This document shows positions 870 through 60,172 of a stretch of 64,000 nucleotides of DNA, piece by piece; position 1 is the stretch's first letter; every line of letters starts with the position of its first letter. A model generated the notes under the pieces. The model was not told where the DNA came from and ran no database searches. It saw only the letters and a list, made by a program, of their open reading frames with translations. The translations under genes and the position numbers were made by a program. The stretch spans positions 3,162,001-3,226,000 of the forward strand of contig CM035359.1 of assembly GCA_020137815.1 (NCBI GenBank), given 5' to 3'. This stretch comes from Hormiphora californensis (taxonomy: Eukaryota; Animalia; Ctenophora).

Positions 870-47443
<46,574 letters not shown>

Positions 47444-49078: not shown

Positions 49079-49222
49079 CCATGACAACACCAAATTGTTA
49101 ATTTATCTCATCCCCATGACAACACCAAGCTGTTAATTTATCTCATCCCCATGACAACACCAAGTTGTTAATTTATCTCATCCCCATGACAACACCAAGT
49201 TGTTAATTTATCTCATCCCCAT
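49079..49222 (-). repeat. 35-bp tandem repeat (4 copies) spanning the K2P stop codon
   Basis: ccatgacaacaccaagttgttaatttatctcatcc x4; the copy at ~49186-49222 contains ...GDEIN*. Confidence 0.9.
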
Positions 49223-52200
49223 TCGTCAGGGCGGGTGCTCCCAAAGTTTTCATTTTGTGTGACTTCGCCAGTTCCAAGGTTTTGCTGACAACGTTTTGGG
49301 AGATCTGAAGGGAGTAGTCAAATGTTATAAGCTGGGCCATTCAAAAAGGACGTCATGATTTTTAGTCCTTTTTCACCCCTCCCTCCCCATCGGTCCGAGC
49401 CTGTCCGAATTTCCCAGACCCCCTCCCCCGTCCGAGTACATTAAGTTATAAATATTACGTACCAGTAGAAGTCTCCGTTGGTAGGCAGCAGCCAGTTCCC
49501 TGATGGCATTGAACACTAGAGACACCATGACTAGACCAATGCAAAAGACAAATAGAACTCGGATGAGCGCCAACACGGTGTGATCAATTAGCGTGATGTC
49601 TCCGAACCCTGCAGATATGGAATATTATTATACACTGTAAAGTGTAAAGTGTACAACTAGGAACCAGCGATACTTGATATATTTTTTTCTCGATTCGATC
49701 TCGATTCGATCTTTAGATGACCAAAAATATATCGATTCGAATCGATGTTTGGGCCATCAAAAAAATGTCGATTCGATCTTTGGGCCTTCAAAAAAATATC
49801 AATTCTATTCGATATTTAGCTTTGGGTCATCAAAAATACGTTCGATTCGATTTGATCTTTGGGCTATCGAAAAAATTCGATTCGATCTTTTATCTATCGA
49901 CTATTAGACATAATAGTACATTCCCTGATTTAGTTTACAATTGATACACCAGAATATCTAGCTGGCACCTACCTACGGTTGTCATGGATATAACATAAAA
50001 ATAGAGGGATTGAACAAAGGAATCATTCTCCGGGTTGTTCAGGTGCATCAGAGTCGCCATAATGAGGAGATAAGCAAAGAGGAAGAGTAAGGATATGCCC
50101 AAAACTATGCCCTGCTCCACGATATCTGGCATCTTCTTCTGCCCCGATAGTCTTCTTATCAGTTTAATAATCTGAGGGGAGAGAGGAAGTTTAGAATACA
50201 TTGGATTCAAACATAGTGTTCGTATATCTGCTAATATTATACATAATATTATATTTATTAGTAGTAGCTGCTCCCGCTAAATCGTTGTAGAGATCTTATG
50301 CAATAATGCAATGGACCTCGCATCTGCAGACTGCATTATTGGTAATACATGCGGATTATAAAGAACTTAAAAAAGGCTAAATTTTGAAGGTTATACAATT
50401 TATAATATACAGTTAACAGTTTAATGTTCTCTCGCCGTCACGTGATAATTACAATTTCTAATCCAGTCTCATGAGACTCATATATGCATTAGACTCTTTA
50501 AAATGGTTGGCATGTGTCTTTGGCTTTCTCTTGATAAAAGAAAGCCTAGCCACAGACATGCCAAGAATTTATTCTAAAATAATTTTATTCTAGAATAATT
50601 TATTCTAGAAGAAATTGATTCCTACAAGATTTTATTCTACACTATAAAACCTACAATGAAACATGATCGTGCCACTGTTTGGCAGGTGTCGAAAGGTCAG
50701 ACTTTTAGCACCCCCCCGACCCCTCTTTATAGCTATCATAATTTATCTCCAAATAAAAACAAGTGGTTTTAGAATAAGTTTTCTCTCGGCTGTCAGGCTG
50801 GCAGGTTCTCGAGGGGCCGAGCTTGCAGTATCAATAGATGCTATTATATTATTATTATTATATTTATACCCTATGTCCAATAGTTGAACTATTGGACAGG
50901 GGGTATAAATATAATATAAACTTGGCAGTGAACTATTAGTTCGAACTACAGTCGGACCCCGATTTAGGGGCCCCCGATTTAGTGGCACCCCGATTTAGGG
51001 ACAGGATTATTTTCCCCCGATATACGAAAATTAACATAATTTGAACCCGATTTAGTGGACACCCCGATTTAGTGGACAAGAGCCTTTCCCCCGAGGGTGT
51101 CCCTAAATCGGGGTCCGACTGTAATAGTTCACTGTCAAATATAGTCCATTACATTTGTAAACTGTTCAATGTTGCTAAGTTGAAATTTTTGAATACTTAA
51201 TTTTAAAGTCTTGCACATGTATTGGGATGTTCTATGAACTAATTTCCGTGTTTTGAAATTTTAAAATTTTAAAATTTTTTTTCGATTTTTTCCCGATTTT
51301 TCACCAAAATCAAGGGTCACAAAAGTGGCTTGCGATCCCAAACGGCTCAACCGTTTGGGCTGAAACTCCGGATATCTGTAGATAATTACCCAATAAATAA
51401 CAGGAAATATGATTCATATCGATATTTGACTATAAAGACCCAATTTTATACTATACAACCGTATGTGCACGAAAACAACCCATGCGCACTGCAATAAACA
51501 GCAAAAACAAGGGTCACAAAAGTGGCTTGCGATCCCAAACGGCTCAACCGTTTGGGCTGAAACTCCGGATATCAGTAGAGAATTACCTAATGAATAACAG
51601 GAAATATGATTCATAGCGATTCATTCCAACTTAGCAACCCCTACTGTTCATTGAACAGTTTACAAATAATGGACTATATTTTTAGTTGCCACCCGTTAAT
51701 TAATAACCGTAATTACATATAATTACCTTTCTGAGAATTAATGAGGATACAGGTAGAAAATATGTTAAGGTAGCTCATCATTATGAGCATCCCCGGTATC
51801 GTATAGACCAGGACAAACAACTTGCCCGTCTCCGTCCTCGGTGCCATGCCCCCATAACCTGAAGTAGTGAACAGCTTTCAAATCACATTCTTTTACAAAA
51901 AAAACAAGGGGGAACAGGCATATATTCTTTTGCAAAAAAACAAGACAGGATAAAATTTCTCTTTTTCCGAGAATGGGCAATGTTTTGCCAAAAGTGGAAA
52001 ACCAGTCAAATCGTTTTTTGGAGACTGGCTCAATGTACTGAAGAGGATGACATTTAACTAAAATTCGTTGCTGCATCTTTTACCAATAGTCGAGACGATA
52101 GTTGACGAAAAATCAAATGATGTCCAGAAGTTCCACATCCTCGCATCAGTCTCGTTGTTGTCTGATTTGAAGCACCTCGTCTTGTAGAGCTCTAACATCC

Positions 52201-53599
52201 GTGAGATGTCATCCTCGGTTAGACGATCGTAGGTCTGATTATCAGGCCGAACCGTACCGACACTCACTGAGTGCAGATAATATATTAATTAATTAATTAA
52301 TCGATTGATAAGTTTAATAATTAATTAATTGATTAATATTGGGTTACATGCTGCTTTGTGGGTACATACATGTTGTTTTTTAGTTTTTGGGTTACAAAGT
52401 ATTCAGTCAATTTCTAAACTCACTTAAAAAGTATCGCAAGAAATTCCGTTGGTCTATCTTTTCCCATGTTAAGTTACGACCCCTCTCGCCTGAAAAAATA
52501 TTAAAAATTAATTTAATAATTTAAATTCAATTGACGAGTTGTTGAGTTGTCTGAGGTTTGCAATAGTACGTCAATGCCTAACCAATGGTTAGTAATCATT
52601 GAGGAAAGAACATAAAATGTTTTATGCTTATAAAATTAAATATTATTCTTGATCAAGTATAATATTCAATTCTTTCAGTTCAGACATTTTAGCAGAGGAA
52701 GTATTTTGTCGGTCGCCTGTCATGTCACTAAGTTATAAACATATGCTGAATGATCTCTACAGCATGTCAAACAACATCCATCTAGGGTTAAAAATACATC
52801 TTGTAGCCTTAAAATCATATACGTTGAATAATATGCATCAAATACCTGTTTCTAGCCAGTTGAACATGGCAGCGCCCACAGAGATATGCGTTATCATAAG
52901 CACCAGTAAGATTAGCGAGTACCAGACTTTCGTGTCGACTTTTCCGAAAAACCCAAAAATCGGAGCCATCACCACGACCTGAAAGGGGAAAGGAAGGGTA
53001 ATAAAATCAATAGAAGTACCTTAAAGAAAATAATAAAAAGAAGAATCTCGGTACTGTAATACTGCATCATGGAGTATTCGATTCAGAGACTCTTTTTAAA
53101 CCCTAATTGATCGATGAGACTTTCATCACTTTTTTGAAACTTCAAACTTTTTGTAATCATTTTTGTGCATGACGTGGCCTTTCAATGGATACCAATGGAT
53201 ACACTAACAGTAAAAATGAGTCAAGGCAAAAAACAGTGGTTCCTCGACCTAGACTAGACTAGAAAAACAATTAGACATGGTCAGTATTTTAGTTTTACAA
53301 TAACTCTTATGACGGATCAATTTGATGTTAGAAATATTAGAGTTAGAAATATTAGAATTATATAATATTAAAACCTTGTCCGCGGGTAAAACACCGCACA
53401 AAATCCCCAGCTCCATATCAAAAGAACCCTCCTCATCATCACAATCCTCCTCTAGCCTCTCAAAATGGCCCGCAGTCCCGCCTGCCCTATGCTCTGACCA
53501 AACTGTCGATGAACGGTAACTGTGGACGGAAGAGGAACCCCTTCTGATTGCCTCAATGTCACTTTTATCAATAACGGAGAGCCGAGCAAAGGTGTTCAT
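49203..53599 (-). CDS. Two-pore-domain potassium channel (K2P/KCNK family), isoform using first exon A
   Basis: Exons (minus strand): 53599-53375, 52978-52846 (M1 ...ISVGAAMFNWLE), 52489-52424, 52266-52084 (WNFWTSFDFSSTIVSTIG), 51858-51727 (GYGGMAPRTETGKLFVLVYTIPG, M2), 50171-49973 (M3, SLYFYVISMTTVG), 49608-49463 (GFGDI, M4), 49304-49203 (TAA). 4TM/2P topology with TIGYG and TVGFG filters. One phase mismatch at the 51727/50171 junction. Confidence 0.9.
50949..51121. mobile_element. MITE family 2 variant
   Basis: ta|cagtcggaccccgatttaggg...ccctaaatcggggtccgactg|ta. Confidence 0.85.
51138..51682. mobile_element. TIR element with internal ~105-bp direct repeat
   Basis: aatatagtccatt..tttgtaaactgttcaatg / cattgaacagtttacaaa..aatggactatatt; caagggtcacaaaagtggc... 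at 51311 and 51508. Confidence 0.7.
53375..53599 (-). CDS. K2P candidate alternative first exon A
   Basis: ATG...75 codons MNTFARLSVIDKSDIEAIRRG...LPADK|gtttta, phase 0, matching the constant-exon acceptor at 52979. Confidence 0.75.
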
Positions 53600-56009
53600 T
53601 ATATTATAGCTTGCAGTGGAGCTAGTTAAAACAATAAAGTAGGAAACTGGTTAAATGTTATGCCAACTGGTTAAATGCTTTGCGAATACTGTGCAGTATA
53701 TTCAAGATCAGCCATTAATTTTACAGATTGCCATTTCTCCTATTGTGCCGAGCAATTATTGACGCTGATCAATCGGTGGAAGTATTTTACACTGTACTTT
53801 AAGTATGTACATTGTACATGCTGCTTTCGACGATCAAATGTAAACGTACAAATTAAGTACAAATTATATTTAGTCAATGCTTACAATATCGACACATGTG
53901 TATTATTGAAGAACAATAGTTTCATAGAGCCACCTTGCTATCATGGTTACATAGGGCGTTTATTGTTTAATTAATATCCGACCTTATGCACCATAAAATT
54001 AACAAAAATGAGGGTCCAGAACCCGAATTCTCGATAATTTTTATTTTCATAGGAAAATAGCCGTGACCTGAACTTGAGGTTCAGGCATGATTGTTTTCCC
54101 CCTTATGCAGTCAAATCGCATCAGTGATCATAAGCCTACTAGTCAAATTCAAATGCACAAGATTACCATACCCTTCTCAATTACAGTGGTCAATAAAATA
54201 CAATTACTTCTAGTTTGATGGGATTTGGGTGTGTCTAGTTTACAGTCTAGAATATTCTGTCTAGACTAGACTTGACATTTTCTGTAGAAAACAAGAAAGA
54301 GCTGTAAGCACATGTAGTGAACAGTTTGAGTGAAGTGAGTTCAGTATAATCATCTAATGACCTATAGTGAGCACAAGCCTTTGAAAACACGTGTACACGC
54401 CCATTGCAGATTTCGTGGCAATTTCCAAAATCGAAAGTCGAAATTTAAACTCGTATAAATGATCAAAAGATCACCGTCGATACAAAATTACTACACTGCG
54501 AAACTCCGGGCAAAAATTAGAAGTGGCGGTAGAATATATTATACAATTATTATAGTATAGTTGTCCATATTTCATATGTTGTTTATAATAGAGTATTATA
54601 CACCACATAATACTTGCAATTATGAGAATAATCGGTTTCAGATGTGTGAATGAAATGACTTTCATAAGAACTATATCTATCAATAAGCATAGGGTGTACA
54701 ATAAATGTCCTCCTCTATGCTATGTATCATCTGAAGGAATTATAGACAGCCATCAGACATGTGTGTGTGCAGATAAGTCATACATGGTGCTAACGAAATT
54801 GCATTCACAAATCATCAGATGATCTGTGACTCATGCGTATGCGAATATATCAGGGTGCGAGACTTTGTGCCAAATATATATCATCACCACCCAGATGTGC
54901 AGATGAACAATACCGATCGATCGAATTAATGTGTGGTAATGTAACCAATTAAAATTTATAGAAATAGTGACATCAAATATTTTAGCGTGAAGAGATGCGG
55001 TACAATTACAATTTTCCTCTTAGTAACCATGTATACGTGATTGGGTCTAATAAGATTAGCCATGTAATATACCGATTATTAATGCATTTGGTGATACAAC
55101 ATATCATATTATATGATAGTAATTTTTCCAGGATTGGATTTAATTTAGGGCCGGTATATATCCACATATAGATCTATTATACAAAGGCTTGTCCGGGCGA
55201 AATCAACTGATACAGGCGAATTCAACTGATACAGAAAATTTACAAGGACTTGATTCAAAATTGGAGCTGTAGTACTATATACGCTGTAGTATTATATACG
55301 CTACGGAAATGCAATCTACAAGATATTGAACCCCTATGAAGTAGGAAACAATAAAGCTCATTGCCCTACTGCTGCACAGTTGTGCACGGCACCGAAGTGA
55401 GATTATTACTTTAAGTAAAGAGAGCAAGAGTGTGACTTTTACGAAAAGGAGCAAGAGTAAATTATTGATCAGCCTACCAAACCTGTGGTTTCATGGATTT
55501 TACAAATAGCGATACAATGCAATACAATACACATTTGATTATTTGAAATAATTCATGGTGAAACTAGGAGTGTCTAAACAAATTTACATATAATATCCAA
55601 TTCATTAGTCTCCGTACTGATGGATTGTATCTCAAATTAATCTCATATATACCTTTGAATTGTCGATGGTTCACTCACAGCTCTCTATCTATTGTCGCAA
55701 TATCAACAGCCACGTACAACTATAACAATTAAATTCACACAGAAACTGCACTGACAATGCTAATGAATGCTTGTAACTGGAAGTTGGTAATCATGACCAT
55801 GGTAACAAGGCCATGGCCGCATATCTATAGCTATAGATCTGTTATTATAGTCAAAAGATCATTACGTACAATTGGATCATAATTTTGGTATAATTAGTTA
55901 GGCCAATATTTAGGTATTATAAACATCAGCCTATAGACCTACATAGGCCCACTCATGATATAATTTAAGGTTAATACATCTATTGATCTACTGTGTGTAT
56001 TATATTCAC

Positions 56010-56240
56010 CTGTTCGCCTCGGCCATTAGTACTCCAAGGAAAGCACCCAGTTGGTTTGGCACTGTGTTCCGGGCTCCGATCATCCCCAGAGCCCCTTGGT
56101 CTCCACAATTGGCTGAACCAGGTTCCTCCTCGAGCTACTGAAGTCCCATCACCATCATCACCCTCATTAATGGCTGCTGCCCCTCTAACTGCCCTGATGT
56201 CACCGGTGCTGACCGTACTTAGTCGAGAGTAGGTGTTCAT
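56010..56240 (-). CDS. K2P candidate alternative first exon B (paralogous to A)
   Basis: 77 codons MNTYSRLSTVSTGDIRAVRG...GRGEQ|gtgaat, phase 0; N-terminus aligns with exon A. Confidence 0.7.
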
Positions 56241-58284
56241 GCCCCGGCCCCTTAGATAATTATAAGGTAAAACGAGAGTAGGTGTTCATGCCCCGGCCCC
56301 TTAGATGCAATTTAGGTAAAACGATCGAATTTACTTATAATAAACGAGAAATATTTGTTATTGCTGCATTCCTGGATTACAAGTCAGAGCTTTCGCAAAA
56401 TCGGAGTGGAGGATAACCCGATGGCTGTAAAGGCTAGGATTGACTCCCTTTGTTATATGCAATGCAGGCTGCAAAGGTTTTTTTTGGGTCACTTAGCCAC
56501 ATGCTGAGCAAACCTCATACCGCCCGGGTATGGGTGACTATGGCGCTAAGCTCCCCCTTTCTCAACTTTGGTGAAATGGGGGAACCTATAGCATCAGTCA
56601 TAAAGACTGCATAAAGACTGCAAAGGTACTATAGCAAGCGATTCTAGAACCATGAGTAACATACGTGGTCATCGCGAGAAATGCTTGGAAATGTTATATA
56701 GTCTGCACGTATGGATAAGTAGAAGTGAACAATGAGTTGGGAAGTGAGAAAGAACCAATTTTCGACCCCCAGAATAACCATTTCACTCTCCCTGTCTCCC
56801 TGTCAGGTGTCGTCTATAGGTAAATGTGTCTCTCGCTGGTCATATGTATCGCTCTTCCACTCTCTCTGTTCTCTCTACTACTCTTCTCCTCCTCTCTCTA
56901 CTCCTCTCTCTCTACTCTCTCGTGATCTCTCTCTCTCTATCTTCATCTCTTCTCTCTCTCTCTCTCTCGCTCCCTCTCTCTCTCTCTCCATCTCCTCTCT
57001 CTCACTCTCTCTTCTCTCCTCTCTTTCTCTCTCTCTTTCTCTCTCTGTCCAATTTGCACCGCACCGGGAACCAATGTGTGAGCAGGCCTTCTTACGTTCC
57101 TGCGCTTTCGCACCACTACACCACTATGTACTAGCTCTTTATTAGGAGTTGCTACCTAGATTCAGCAGGGAAGGTGAGAAGTGGCATGAATTAATTCTGA
57201 AACTGGAAGAAGAAGAAGTAATATATATCCTGTGTATGGCGGCGCCATCTCCAATTTGATTTTCAGATGGGGTCGTCGGTACCAGAAGTACTATGTATCA
57301 GCTAGTTGCGAGACCAAGGCTTTGTGTTTATAAGTTACTATTCAAAGGACTAATCCATAGGAATAAGAGCAATAGACAAATCTGGTACAAATAGCGGCAA
57401 CTGATATCCGCCATAAACTTCTTCTTCTTGCACGAACTTGTCACAACAAACTAAATTCATGTTCCATGGAAGTTTACAAGAGTGCCATTAGTTGGCGGAT
57501 CTCTGTGAGATCTGGCGTAGAGAGAAGGGGACTGGACTGAAACAGCAACAAGCTAAGATATAACAAATTCCTTCAGCTTCGTAACTAGAAACTGTATTAA
57601 CAAACAGAGAGATATAAATGGAAACCGCCCGCCACACTCCGGCTCCTTTGGCAATTAACAGCTTCAGAGGTATATAGTACGTGTATGTGTGCCACCAAAC
57701 CGCACAGAGCACCAATATGGGGTAATATATTCAGAAATAGTATTGGGAATATATGGCGAATTAATTTGTAGTAATTAAAGTGGTAGGGTCATTGTGCTGT
57801 ATAAAACTGTTCATGCGTAATTGTCAAAAGTGGCAGATAGCAAATTGTCTTCTAAAACAGTACCCATGGTTGTGAGTTGGGTCTAGCCTAGTATATTCCG
57901 TCTAGTAGACAGAAAATACAAGAATTATACTCGAATGTGCCCAAATTACGGGTCGTCTCTTCTAGGCTCAATTGTGTAACACAATTTTGCATGAATAATT
58001 TCATGTCCACATGAGACTGAGGCGGAGACAGCTCTTTGATCTAGACAATTCACTCCTAATTTGTAAGTTGGCCCATATGATTTACGAATACGTAAATACG
58101 ATATACGTATTTACGTATCTTCTTCCTTCTAATAATCCTTTGGATTTGTTTTGGATACTGGGCAAACAAGGCAACTTAACTGTTTTCAGGCTACAACCAA
58201 ACACCAAAAATTATGAACAGCTGGCTTTCCTAAAGCACCTTCACGATCCATTATATATACAAGTCCAGCTATAACTGCACTTAC

Positions 58285-58533
58285 CATGTAAGTCCAGCTA
58301 GACTCGAGCATGATCAACATCAACATTTTATCATCCCGAGGAATTACACTCATCTCATGGCTGTTCATCCCCGCACCTGACAGGGGAAGCAGCATCTCAG
58401 CAGCCCCAGCCGCAGTCTCACTCAACATGGTAGTAGAAGCATCGTATTCCTCGGATTTTATCTCTTCAGATGAGAGAAATCCCTCGTCATCAGCGTCTTT
58501 TAGTAGGCAACCAACTCTTGAGGAGTGATCCAT
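58285..58533 (-). CDS. K2P candidate alternative first exon C
   Basis: In-frame TAA two codons before the ATG; 83 codons MDHSSRVGCLLKD...SSWTYM|gtaagt, phase 0 with a consensus donor. Confidence 0.55.
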
Positions 58534-59025
58534 GTTTTAAGCGGATCACCAGTCACTTGGGGAGTGATCCTAATTGTTGAAGAGCTCGCTGTGGCTTCAA
58601 GAGCTTCTCGGCAAAGACTAGAGATGGCAGTTTATGAAATCAAATCGCAACTGCAAACTATAAGAACTGGAATCTTGGTATGCTAAAACCGCTTCATGGA
58701 GAGGGTGGGTTGGATTTAGCTCCTTAATTAGGACCCCCGTTTTAATAACTGCAATGCGGGAGTTAATTTTAGCTAATTCTTCCTCAACAAGATATGTCTG
58801 ATGTGACACACAAGTTTGCGTTGCCCTCTGGAGCCTGGGAATTATTATACCACTCTGGGATTTTTAGCGAACCATGCAATGTACAGCTGTGCATTTGTAG
58901 TTTAGGAATATGTACTTAATTTAGACTGGAATATTTATTAGACATATTTTATAGAGGGTCGAATAAGTGGCATACTTTAACATATGACAACTTTTCAATG
59001 CAATGACAAGGCACCATTCTCCTAC

Positions 59026-59130
59026 CTTAACAAATGACAAGGCACCATGATTCTCCGTCCTTCGAAGGCTATCATCATCACCATCTTCCCCAGTCTCATG
59101 TAGTTCATAGAATCCATCTTTTTTCCCCAT
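59026..59130 (-). CDS. K2P candidate alternative first exon D
   Basis: 35 codons MGKKDGFYELHETGEDGDDDSLRRTENHGALSFVK|gtagga, phase 0; acceptor-like tattacag ~60 nt upstream. Confidence 0.55.
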
Positions 59131-59923
59131 GATGCAGATATTTACCGATAACAATCCTATTTTCCTTCAGGAACCAGCGATGATAACTAGAGCTGTAATA
59201 TACAAGTCACCAAATAATGTAAGTAAAATCACATCAACATCAAACTATACACATGCTAGTGAATCAAACCTCCATTTACTGTAATCGAGATTTGACCTTC
59301 AAACCTTCCGATAACTATAAAATATATCTGAATGCTTTATCCATACAACACGCATGTTATCATGATACGGAATAGAGTGCTTCCTATATCTTAAATCCAT
59401 TATCGCGAGCTTTAAAACCTCAACATGTGAATAAGTTGCAGTATTGTGGTTAATAAGATACTTGTGTATGCATGAATCGTGTGTATACTGTATGTGTGGG
59501 AAAAAGTGTATGTGTAATATAAGTTTTCATTGTGTCGCCTGACACGGTAATGGTGCAAAGAATGCAATTCAAGGTTTTCAGCGATTGTTTATTGACCAAT
59601 CATGGTTTTTGAAATGCTGGATTCTGATTGGCTCGTATACATGTGGTGATTATACAAAAAGTACATGTATGCAAAACAATTATGCAGTAGTATATAAAAT
59701 AGTCCACCCTAAGCCAAAAAATTGATGAGAACAAGAGCGCCTAAAAGTTTACTAAAACATTAAAATTCGTTTTTTTTTAAATTTTTGAAGTTGTCTACTC
59801 AACAAGAACAGATCTACATATCTACAAACATGATAACAAGGACGTCTACAAATCTGATCTAGAAAGTAGAAGTCTCTACCAGTCTAAGTCTACAGATCTA
59901 GATGAACTTTCTGGTCTACTTAC

Positions 59924-60172
59924 TGGAGAGTTAAAAAAAGAATCAGGCCAGCGGATTCTCCTAGAAACCTTGGGATCTGGCGGTGGTGGCAGCTCATCCT
60001 TCTTCCACCTCCCACTTTTGAGGGCGGGTTTTCTCCGTTTTCTGGTTTCCTCCTCCTTCATCTCCTGGAGAAGTTGGTAGCCCTTCCTCGGTCGGGGAGG
60101 TGGCAGCTGGTCTGGGGTTAAGATATGTTTCCGGGATAGGATCATTGTGAAGAGGAGCTGTTGGGGATCCAT
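59924..60172 (-). CDS. K2P candidate alternative first exon E (or independent short ORF 59876-60172)
   Basis: In-frame stop 5 codons before the ATG; 83 codons MDPQQLLFTM...DSFFNSP|gtaagt, phase 0; Pro/Lys/Arg-rich. Confidence 0.4.

Follow-up and report, generated by a model that had tools for sequence, protein, structure and literature searches.

The window analysed here is a 64,000-nucleotide stretch of the ctenophore Hormiphora californensis (contig CM035359.1). It was found to contain a two-pore potassium channel gene on the minus strand, the body of which consisted of seven exons, preceded upstream by five open segments named A to E (Table 1). Downstream, the only coherent signal was a plus-strand Ig-domain gene (148 of the 217 ORFs of the window were scanned).

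Table 1. Putative variable first exons and constant exons of the channel gene, in window positions (a slash marks the splice site)
Feature	Position	Strand	Description
Variable first exon A	53599-53375	-	75 aa; GC 0.51; donor AAG/GTTTTA; acceptor 22 nt before ATG (53621)
Variable first exon B	56240-56010	-	77 aa; GC 0.55; donor CAG/GTGAAT
Variable first exon C	58533-58285	-	83 aa; GC 0.48; donor ATG/GTAAGT; candidate acceptor 84 nt before ATG (58617)
Candidate variable first exon D	59130-59026	-	35 aa; GC 0.43; donor AAG/GTAGGA; candidate acceptors 62 and 56 nt before ATG
Variable first exon E	60172-59924	-	83 aa from first ATG, 74 aa from second; GC 0.53; donor CCA/GTAAGT; candidate acceptor 35 nt before ATG (60207)
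Constant exon 1	52978-52846	-	VVVMAPIFGFFGK; linker and M1 helix; Met at codon 4
Constant exon 2	52424..52489	-	cap region
Constant exon 3	52084..52266	-	cap, pore helix 1
Constant exon 4	51727..51858	-	filter 1, M2
Constant exon 5	49973..50171	-	M3, pore helix 2
Constant exon 6	49463..49608	-	filter 2, M4
Constant exon 7	49203..49304	-	short C-terminal tail to stop

The first constant exon began in phase 0 at 52978, as the initial annotation had described, and lay behind a pyrimidine-rich CAG acceptor. Constant exons 1 to 3 were identical to the protein P0001 across 124 residues. The filter motifs TxGYG and TxGFG were both present across the exon junctions of the window, and the domain PF07885 was found twice in each of P0004, P0005 and P0006. 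The best PDB sequence matches of the orthologue P0005 were all K2P channels, headed by TREK-1 (E 1.5e-19); the similarity to the solved structures was low, and TASK and TRAAK scored just behind TREK-1. The predicted model of P0005 had a mean pLDDT of 74 and a mostly confident core, with helices at residues 103-130, 132-182 (the cap), 224-267, 274-303 and 336-398. By sequence and model the gene encodes a K2P (KCNK) channel with two pore domains, four membrane helices and a cap after M1. Exon 4, as assembled, contained an extra base relative to the transcript of the orthologue, near position 51745; the frame was shifted and the assembled core stopped after 173 codons, whereas the cores of the relatives were intact. 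The extra base, the homology between A and B and the weak donor of A had all been missed in the initial annotation.

The five segments were all open at the positions first proposed, each starting with ATG and followed by a GT in phase 0. They had been called GC-richer, which was true of A, B, C and E and only marginally so of D; the GC content of neighbouring 500-nt windows was mostly 0.33-0.43. In-frame stops were found shortly before the ATG of C (2 codons) and of E (5 codons), as first noted, and also before those of D, B and A (13, 16 and 18 codons, respectively). A 49-nt tandem copy of the start of B was located upstream of B, at 56273-56321. The initial annotation had allowed that C to E might be multicopy repeats; within the 64-kb window each of the five segments was single-copy. 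In composition, C contained an acidic cluster and a hydrophobic end, D was acidic, and E, which contained the stretch RKRRK, was basic and proline-rich. An extra membrane helix in C was considered and rejected, as its best 19-residue hydropathy (1.67) was not above that of A (1.78) or D (1.81). No Pfam family was found in A to E and the Atlas gave no usable match for C; most of residues 1-102 of P0005 were at pLDDT below 50 in the predicted model.

Donors were scored with a generic matrix of approximate weights, not trained on ctenophores. By this matrix B, C, D and E were the top four of the 11 phase-0 ATG-ORF/donor candidates between 64000 and 52979. The donor of A was atypical and weak; it scored -4.6, whereas all six core donors scored higher (-0.7 to 4.8). 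Four ORFs of at least 35 aa ending at donors scoring at least 3 were found in 7.3 kb, and more than two such ORFs occurred in none of 500 block-wise dinucleotide shuffles; three of the four were at least 70 aa long, a number that exceeded one in no shuffle. These figures are not clean p-values, because the stretch and the thresholds were picked post hoc. Over the same 7.3 kb the plus strand contained no such ORF, and positions 1-48.9 kb contained three on the minus strand and two on the plus strand.

Matching segments in related comb jellies were found for A, B, C and E, that is, for four of the five. A aligned nearly end to end with the N-terminus of P0005 (0 of 5000 shuffles as good), and P0019, from a further source, contained an A-type exon and continued past a phase-0 donor of the same type; A is likely to be the orthologue of the first exon in these two proteins. 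B was homologous to A over about the first 20 residues (0 of 5000 shuffles against A and 0 of 5000 against the P0005 N-terminus). Among the tblastn matches listed in the window for P0005 residues 1-19, the ATGs of B and A were the two best outside the core. A-B was the only homologous pair among the ten possible pairs of segments, the next best being B-D (73 of 5000 shuffles). Homologues of C were found in P0154 (69/83 identical), P0158 (61/83), P0155 (73/83) and P0156 (71/83), and E was matched by P0157, with 61/74 identical residues from Met10, ending in FFNSP/V. The homologues of C and E aligned from the ATG to the donor, the frame being kept through indels. In P0154 and P0158, the more distant homologues of C, the identity ended at the donor (0/7 and 0/8 residues after the donor Val), and in P0155 and P0156 it was 2/3 each. 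The latter two, C-like gene models that differ from each other and contain acidic insertions, come from the same source as P0001, the core identical to that of the window, so C may be allelic or multicopy. D is the weakest member of the set and is retained as a candidate exon only.

In our study, different N-termini were found on one core in the relatives. P0004 and P0005, both of one relative, had 321 of 322 core residues in common and diverged exactly before VVVMAP. The N-terminus of P0004 ended in K, while genomic read-throughs of the acceptor (P0002 and P0003) ended in FQ; P0004 is therefore probably spliced and not an intron read-through. The transcript L001 encoded P0005 without introns and had its junction, CAG/GTT, at 505. 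A contig of run X1, which is 80-90% alike, spanned position 52978 and had a 5' end of a third type, and the junction point at 52978 was common to P0004, P0005/L001 and this contig. Run X1 consisted of contigs only, presumed to be RNA, had almost no sequence words in common with the window, and left A to E uncovered, so that it is uninformative on their use. The core junctions observed came from relatives only, with N-termini of the A/B, P0004 and X1 types, and none of them linked B, C, D or E to the core. The N-terminus of P0004 and the X1 end gave no convincing match at the 673 phase-0 GT/GC sites between 53 and 64 kb; these two junctions hence support the principle, and not C, D or E. The N-terminus of the paralogue P0008 had no match among A to E (385-1947 of 2000 shuffles as good), and a search for a related locus with P0005 gave 594 pattern matches, none of which was confirmed. 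The initial proposal of one K2P gene with several N-termini joined at 52978 was borne out in the relative by P0004, P0005 and L001, the sequences of which indicate at least two N-terminal exons spliced to one constant exon. In H. californensis itself, we infer a junction to the core for each of B, C, D and E. The initial annotation had also proposed a short isoform from the Met of the constant exon. P0001, P0006 and P0038 do start at this Met; they were discounted as evidence, since ORF callers do so with any truncated sequence.

A spliced leader had been guessed at as well, and the guess held for the A/B-type transcript of the relative, the only type covered. The first 29 nt of L001 matched the published Hormiphora leader at 24 of 29 positions when compared by eye, including the end AATTTGAG. 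The leader was followed by a UTR without a long upstream ORF, then by the A-type exon and the core. It stood 217 nt upstream of the ATG; the leader may therefore be accepted at a site other than the AG adjacent to the ATG. A pyrimidine-rich AG, with no ATG in between, was found before every ATG of A to E; such AGs are common.

Our preferred explanation, which we consider probable, is that A to E are mutually exclusive first coding exons of a ctenophore K2P gene, capped by the leader and probably under separate promoters. Each variable exon would be joined alone to 52978, giving one pore with up to five cytoplasmic N-termini, and each would probably have its own promoter. The leader would be trans-spliced onto an AG 10-85 nt before each ATG. 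The donor would then skip the downstream variable exons, and products including them would stop early and presumably be degraded. The N-termini are predicted to be disordered regulatory tails (a conserved MNTxxRLS in A and B, the acidic cluster in C, basic and proline-rich motifs in E). Their effect would be on phosphorylation, conductance, trafficking or the binding of partners, and not on the pore. As K2P channels assemble as dimers, isoforms expressed together could form mixed channels.

The same isoforms might instead arise from one upstream promoter or a common non-coding first exon, the N-terminus being set by the acceptor that receives the leader. We regard this as unlikely, though worth keeping in view. 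It fits the leader-like 5' end on the A/B-type transcript of the relative, the acceptor-like AG before each ATG with no ATG between, the leader on at least 56% of Hormiphora reads (PMC8527503) and the alternative trans-splicing reported for C. elegans sma-9 (PMC2904332). However, an acceptor before each ATG is expected equally under separate promoters, and the leader of L001 lies 217 nt from the ATG. Docking/selector pairing of the Dscam type was not found between the intron adjacent to the constant exon and the 500 nt after four donors; the best mean duplex, of -20.6 kcal/mol, was equalled or beaten by 18 of 40 controls. No common family was present among the 25 pairs of inverted repeats listed. 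It is considerably less probable that the channel uses the A/B type alone, with C, D and E being the first exons of a different gene that spans the channel, or small genes that stand alone or are multicopy. None of the core junctions observed starts from C, D or E, ctenophores commonly have nested genes (PMC8527503), and P0155 and P0156 are two divergent C-like stand-alone models. Yet the donor phase of C, D and E is in each case the one that the constant exon requires, and more than one type of N-terminus was found on the same core in relatives. The read-through tails are unconserved in the more distant homologues, which argues against single-exon genes. No host gene was recognised on the minus strand in the 148 of 217 window ORFs scanned, a scan that short exons would escape.

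The segments could also be serial exons of one long N-terminus, a reading that is disfavoured and that we hold to be very improbable. All segments are in phase 0, and several internal AGs are open and in frame, four in A and C (53491, 58461, 58416 and 58302) and five in E, so that frame alone leaves partial serial joining possible. Against this, L001 passes directly from a leader-like end and UTR through an A-type exon into the core, and A/B and C are conserved from the ATG onwards, a point that lies before the internal AGs. Splicing of B to the AG 22 nt before A gave a stop after 5 codons, as first reported, and phase-0 joining to the acceptor-like AGs upstream of the five ATGs led to stops in 31 of 31 cases. 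An equally slight chance is given to a decaying gene copy with the segments as its relics. The extra base in exon 4 and the weak donor of A would suit it, but the remaining exons and splice sites are intact, the five segments are open, and the near-identical exon-4 proteins P0014, P0032 and P0082 are in frame, reading ILIILRK/V; an assembly error of one base, or a rare allele, would be the simpler account.

If one ctenophore K2P gene makes at least five N-termini, gene counts understate channel diversity in the lineage that bears most closely on how neurons arose. Surveys of ion-channel repertoires count genes, and in one of them 'isoform' and 'splic' occur 0 times in the main text (10.1101/2025.02.15.638427); in the literature searched, chiefly open-access main texts, no report of ctenophore K2P isoforms was found. 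C-like segments and the core are listed as separate stand-alone proteins in one public protein set (P0155, P0156 and P0001); a clone made from models of this kind would lack the putative regulatory tails. The locus is a compact test of first-exon choice in a trans-splicing animal, each exon having a candidate acceptor, and its five putative N-termini for a single pore are material for electrophysiology. A bolder extension, to which we give little credence, is a ctenophore-wide diversification of K+ channels by arrays of unrelated N-terminal exons, with alternative leader trans-splicing on one pre-mRNA as an operon-like intragenic switch and this K2P gene as an example. If true, an independently evolved nervous system would have far more channel types than a count of its genes shows.

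Alternative first exons have already been described for bilaterian K2P genes, and C. elegans twk-40 is the closest known case (PMC9049526). It has isoform-specific upstream exons (b and c) and a common core, isoform a being the core alone and short, and different upstream regions drive largely different neurons (PMC9049526). Its two upstream exons add 22 and 43 aa (PMC9049526), whereas five candidates of 35-83 aa were found here. Nematodes, like ctenophores, use spliced leaders. The two loci are likened by layout. Since paralogy among the segments is confined to A and B, twk-40 is a closer case than the protocadherins.

Among mammalian channels, KCNK10 has three alternative first exons. In TREK-1 and TREK-2 (KCNK2 and KCNK10) the N-terminus is varied by alternative splicing and by alternative translation initiation; it is the choice of initiation site that sets single-channel conductance (PMC8396510, PMC8616229). 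Mammalian TREK is not known to use a spliced leader, and the ctenophore channel was matched to it by sequence. The ctenophore leader has been described as one leader ending in AATTTGAG, as on the 5' end of L001, and added to different genes (PMC8527503); here it would serve alternative N-termini of one gene. Clustered protocadherins, UGT1 and chelicerate sDscam likewise have tandem variable 5' exons with common constant exons, and the same need to skip downstream variable exons (PMC4835542, PMC1885805, PMC3325998). Their variable exons are large paralogues encoding a recognition or substrate domain (same sources), whereas A to E are short and probably disordered, with one homologous pair in ten. 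The initial comparison with protocadherins and UGT1 therefore holds for the layout, and not for paralogy or for a folded domain.

The search with the constant exon, which is the first of the seven core exons and contains a linker starting VVVMAP followed by M1, returned all of its candidates (6/6). Two proteins of a relative, P0004 and P0005, were found to differ at one of 322 core residues, whereas their N-termini (22 aa in P0004, 86 aa in P0005) are unrelated and both stop exactly before VVVMAP. Both proteins contained the complete core without intron read-through, whereas the genomic fragments P0038 and P0080, with the same residues, continued past the exon ends of the window into intron sequence, which suggests that P0004 and P0005 are probably spliced products. 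The P0004 N-terminus ended in K, whereas the genomic acceptor read-throughs P0002 and P0003 ended in FQ; a final K fits splicing from a donor AAG/GT better than intron retention. A contig of the sequencing run X1 spanned the 52978 junction with a third type of 5' end. The P0004 N-terminus and the X1 end matched none of the window segments, so that more first exons may exist past 64000 or may be lineage-specific.

Candidate first coding exons and K2P core in the window
Feature	Position	Strand	Basis
Segment A	53599-53375	-	ATG to phase-0 GT
Segment B	56240-56010	-	ATG to phase-0 GT
Segment C	58533-58285	-	ATG to phase-0 GT
Segment D	59130-59026	-	ATG to phase-0 GT
Segment E	60172-59924	-	ATG to phase-0 GT
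Constant exon	52978-52846	-	phase-0 start after pyrimidine-rich CAG acceptor
Seven constant exons	52978 to about 49203	-	match to orthologues

The P0005 N-terminus aligned with segment A over nearly its full length and with B over 19 residues, and A aligned with B; the A-B, P0005-A and P0005-B scores were each reached by 0/5000 shuffles. P0019, from a different source, read through a phase-0 donor at the A-type position. The sole match of a DNA pattern scan was L001, the nucleotide record encoding P0005, and its first 29 nt matched the trans-spliced ctenophore leader at 24/29 positions by eye, with the end AATTTGAG. The spliced-leader guess of the initial annotation thus gained support for the A/B type in the relative: since L001 encodes P0005 and has a leader-like start, the A/B type is, on the sequence of this record, a first coding exon of a leader-capped transcript there. 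B appears to have arisen by duplication of A, and its donor is the stronger of the two. A short upstream ATG was present in L001 directly before the start. The start of exon B was also found as a 49-nt tandem duplicate (56224-56321), giving a second acceptor-ATG unit of nine codons followed by a stop. A 37-nt leader copy at 11941-11905 (-) matched the published Hormiphora leader at 36/37 positions by eye, a match from which a ctenophore origin of the window was deduced; it is followed by CC, not GT, and is therefore no obvious leader-RNA gene, possibly a leader retro-inserted into an intron of the Ig gene described below.

The initial observation is real: the five segments and the constant exon had been placed correctly (table). 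Each segment occurred once within the window. Under a generic donor matrix with approximate weights, 11 candidates were scored in the region preceding the core; the donors of B, C, D and E took the top four places, and that of A scored below all core donors. Four ORFs of at least 35 aa ending at such donors were found in 7.3 kb, against at most two in any of 500 shuffles and none on the opposite strand; this excess is supporting but not decisive, because region and thresholds were fixed after the finding. A two-sequence profile search for C and E homologues returned 5 of 18 candidates. C was identical to P0154 at 69/83 and to P0158 at 61/83 residues with in-frame indels, and past the donor valine 0/7 and 0/8 residues were shared, respectively. 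P0157 was identical to E at 61/74 residues from E's second Met, and its tail after the donor had only four residues. C and E show the pattern expected of coding exons delimited by ATG and donor. The C-like models P0155 and P0156, with acidic repeat insertions of 16 and 28 residues, came from the source of P0001, which was identical to the window core over 124 residues; they may represent alleles, variation in length, or additional exon C copies. D is a candidate variable exon by frame, donor and acceptor. Its final part occurs again right after its donor (59055-59000, -, by eye).

The match of the core exons to orthologues was 33-36% for exons 2 and 7 and 64-85% for the other five. The orthologues contained two Ion_trans_2 domains, their best solved-structure matches were K2P channels, and their predicted fold has a four-helix core and a cap, with residues 1-102 mostly of low confidence. 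Exon 4 (~51745, -) carried a single extra base relative to L001, its orthologous transcript, and the frame as assembled ends at a stop after 173 codons; as three near-identical exon-4 proteins keep the frame intact, an assembly error or a rare allele is likely. Although of low confidence in the model, the PIFGFFGKV linker before M1 (52978-52930) was near-invariant in orthologues and recognisable in the distant paralogues P0008, P0009 and P0012, and it possibly represents a conserved regulatory element.

Serial joining of the segments was opposed by the 31 AGs that resemble acceptors and precede the five ATGs: every one gives a stop if joined in phase 0. Inside the segments, nine AGs (A, one; C, three; E, five) are open in frame, but their use would lose the conserved starts. 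That some of the segments belong to a distant host gene is a possible but unlikely alternative, and nested genes are described as common in ctenophores (PMC8527503); Pfam found no credible minus-strand gene among 148 of the 217 window ORFs. On the plus strand, a multi-exon gene with several weak Ig-domain Pfam matches (~4400-42700) lies tail to tail with the K2P gene. The 17500-20000 block is GC-rich (0.52-0.56) and repetitive, with overlapping ORFs in many frames, and the Pfam matches in it are apparently artefacts of the repeats.

Several N-termini on one K2P core, as initially proposed, are present in relatives (P0004, P0005), together with a leader-like 5' end; for the window, we infer that each variable exon is used alone. 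Separate promoters, followed by leader addition to each transcript, are the favoured reading; the analogy is twk-40, in which distinct upstream regions are active in different neurons (PMC9049526). One long pre-mRNA, with the N-terminus set by the choice of leader acceptor, is a possible but less likely alternative. No support for a docking/selector switch was found between the intron adjoining the constant exon and the 500 nt after four donors. The tails of A to E differ in conserved motifs and in net charge (-7, 0, -11, -4 and +9, respectively). Acidic clusters, RxR and proline-rich motifs have roles in sorting and binding. TREK N-termini set conductance (PMC8396510, PMC8616229).

The initial comparison with protocadherins and UGT1 (PMC4835542) held for the layout and for nothing beyond it. 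Alternative N-terminal exons have been described for K2P genes of nematodes (PMC9049526) and mammals (PMC8396510, PMC8616229), and no ctenophore case was found in the literature accessible to search.
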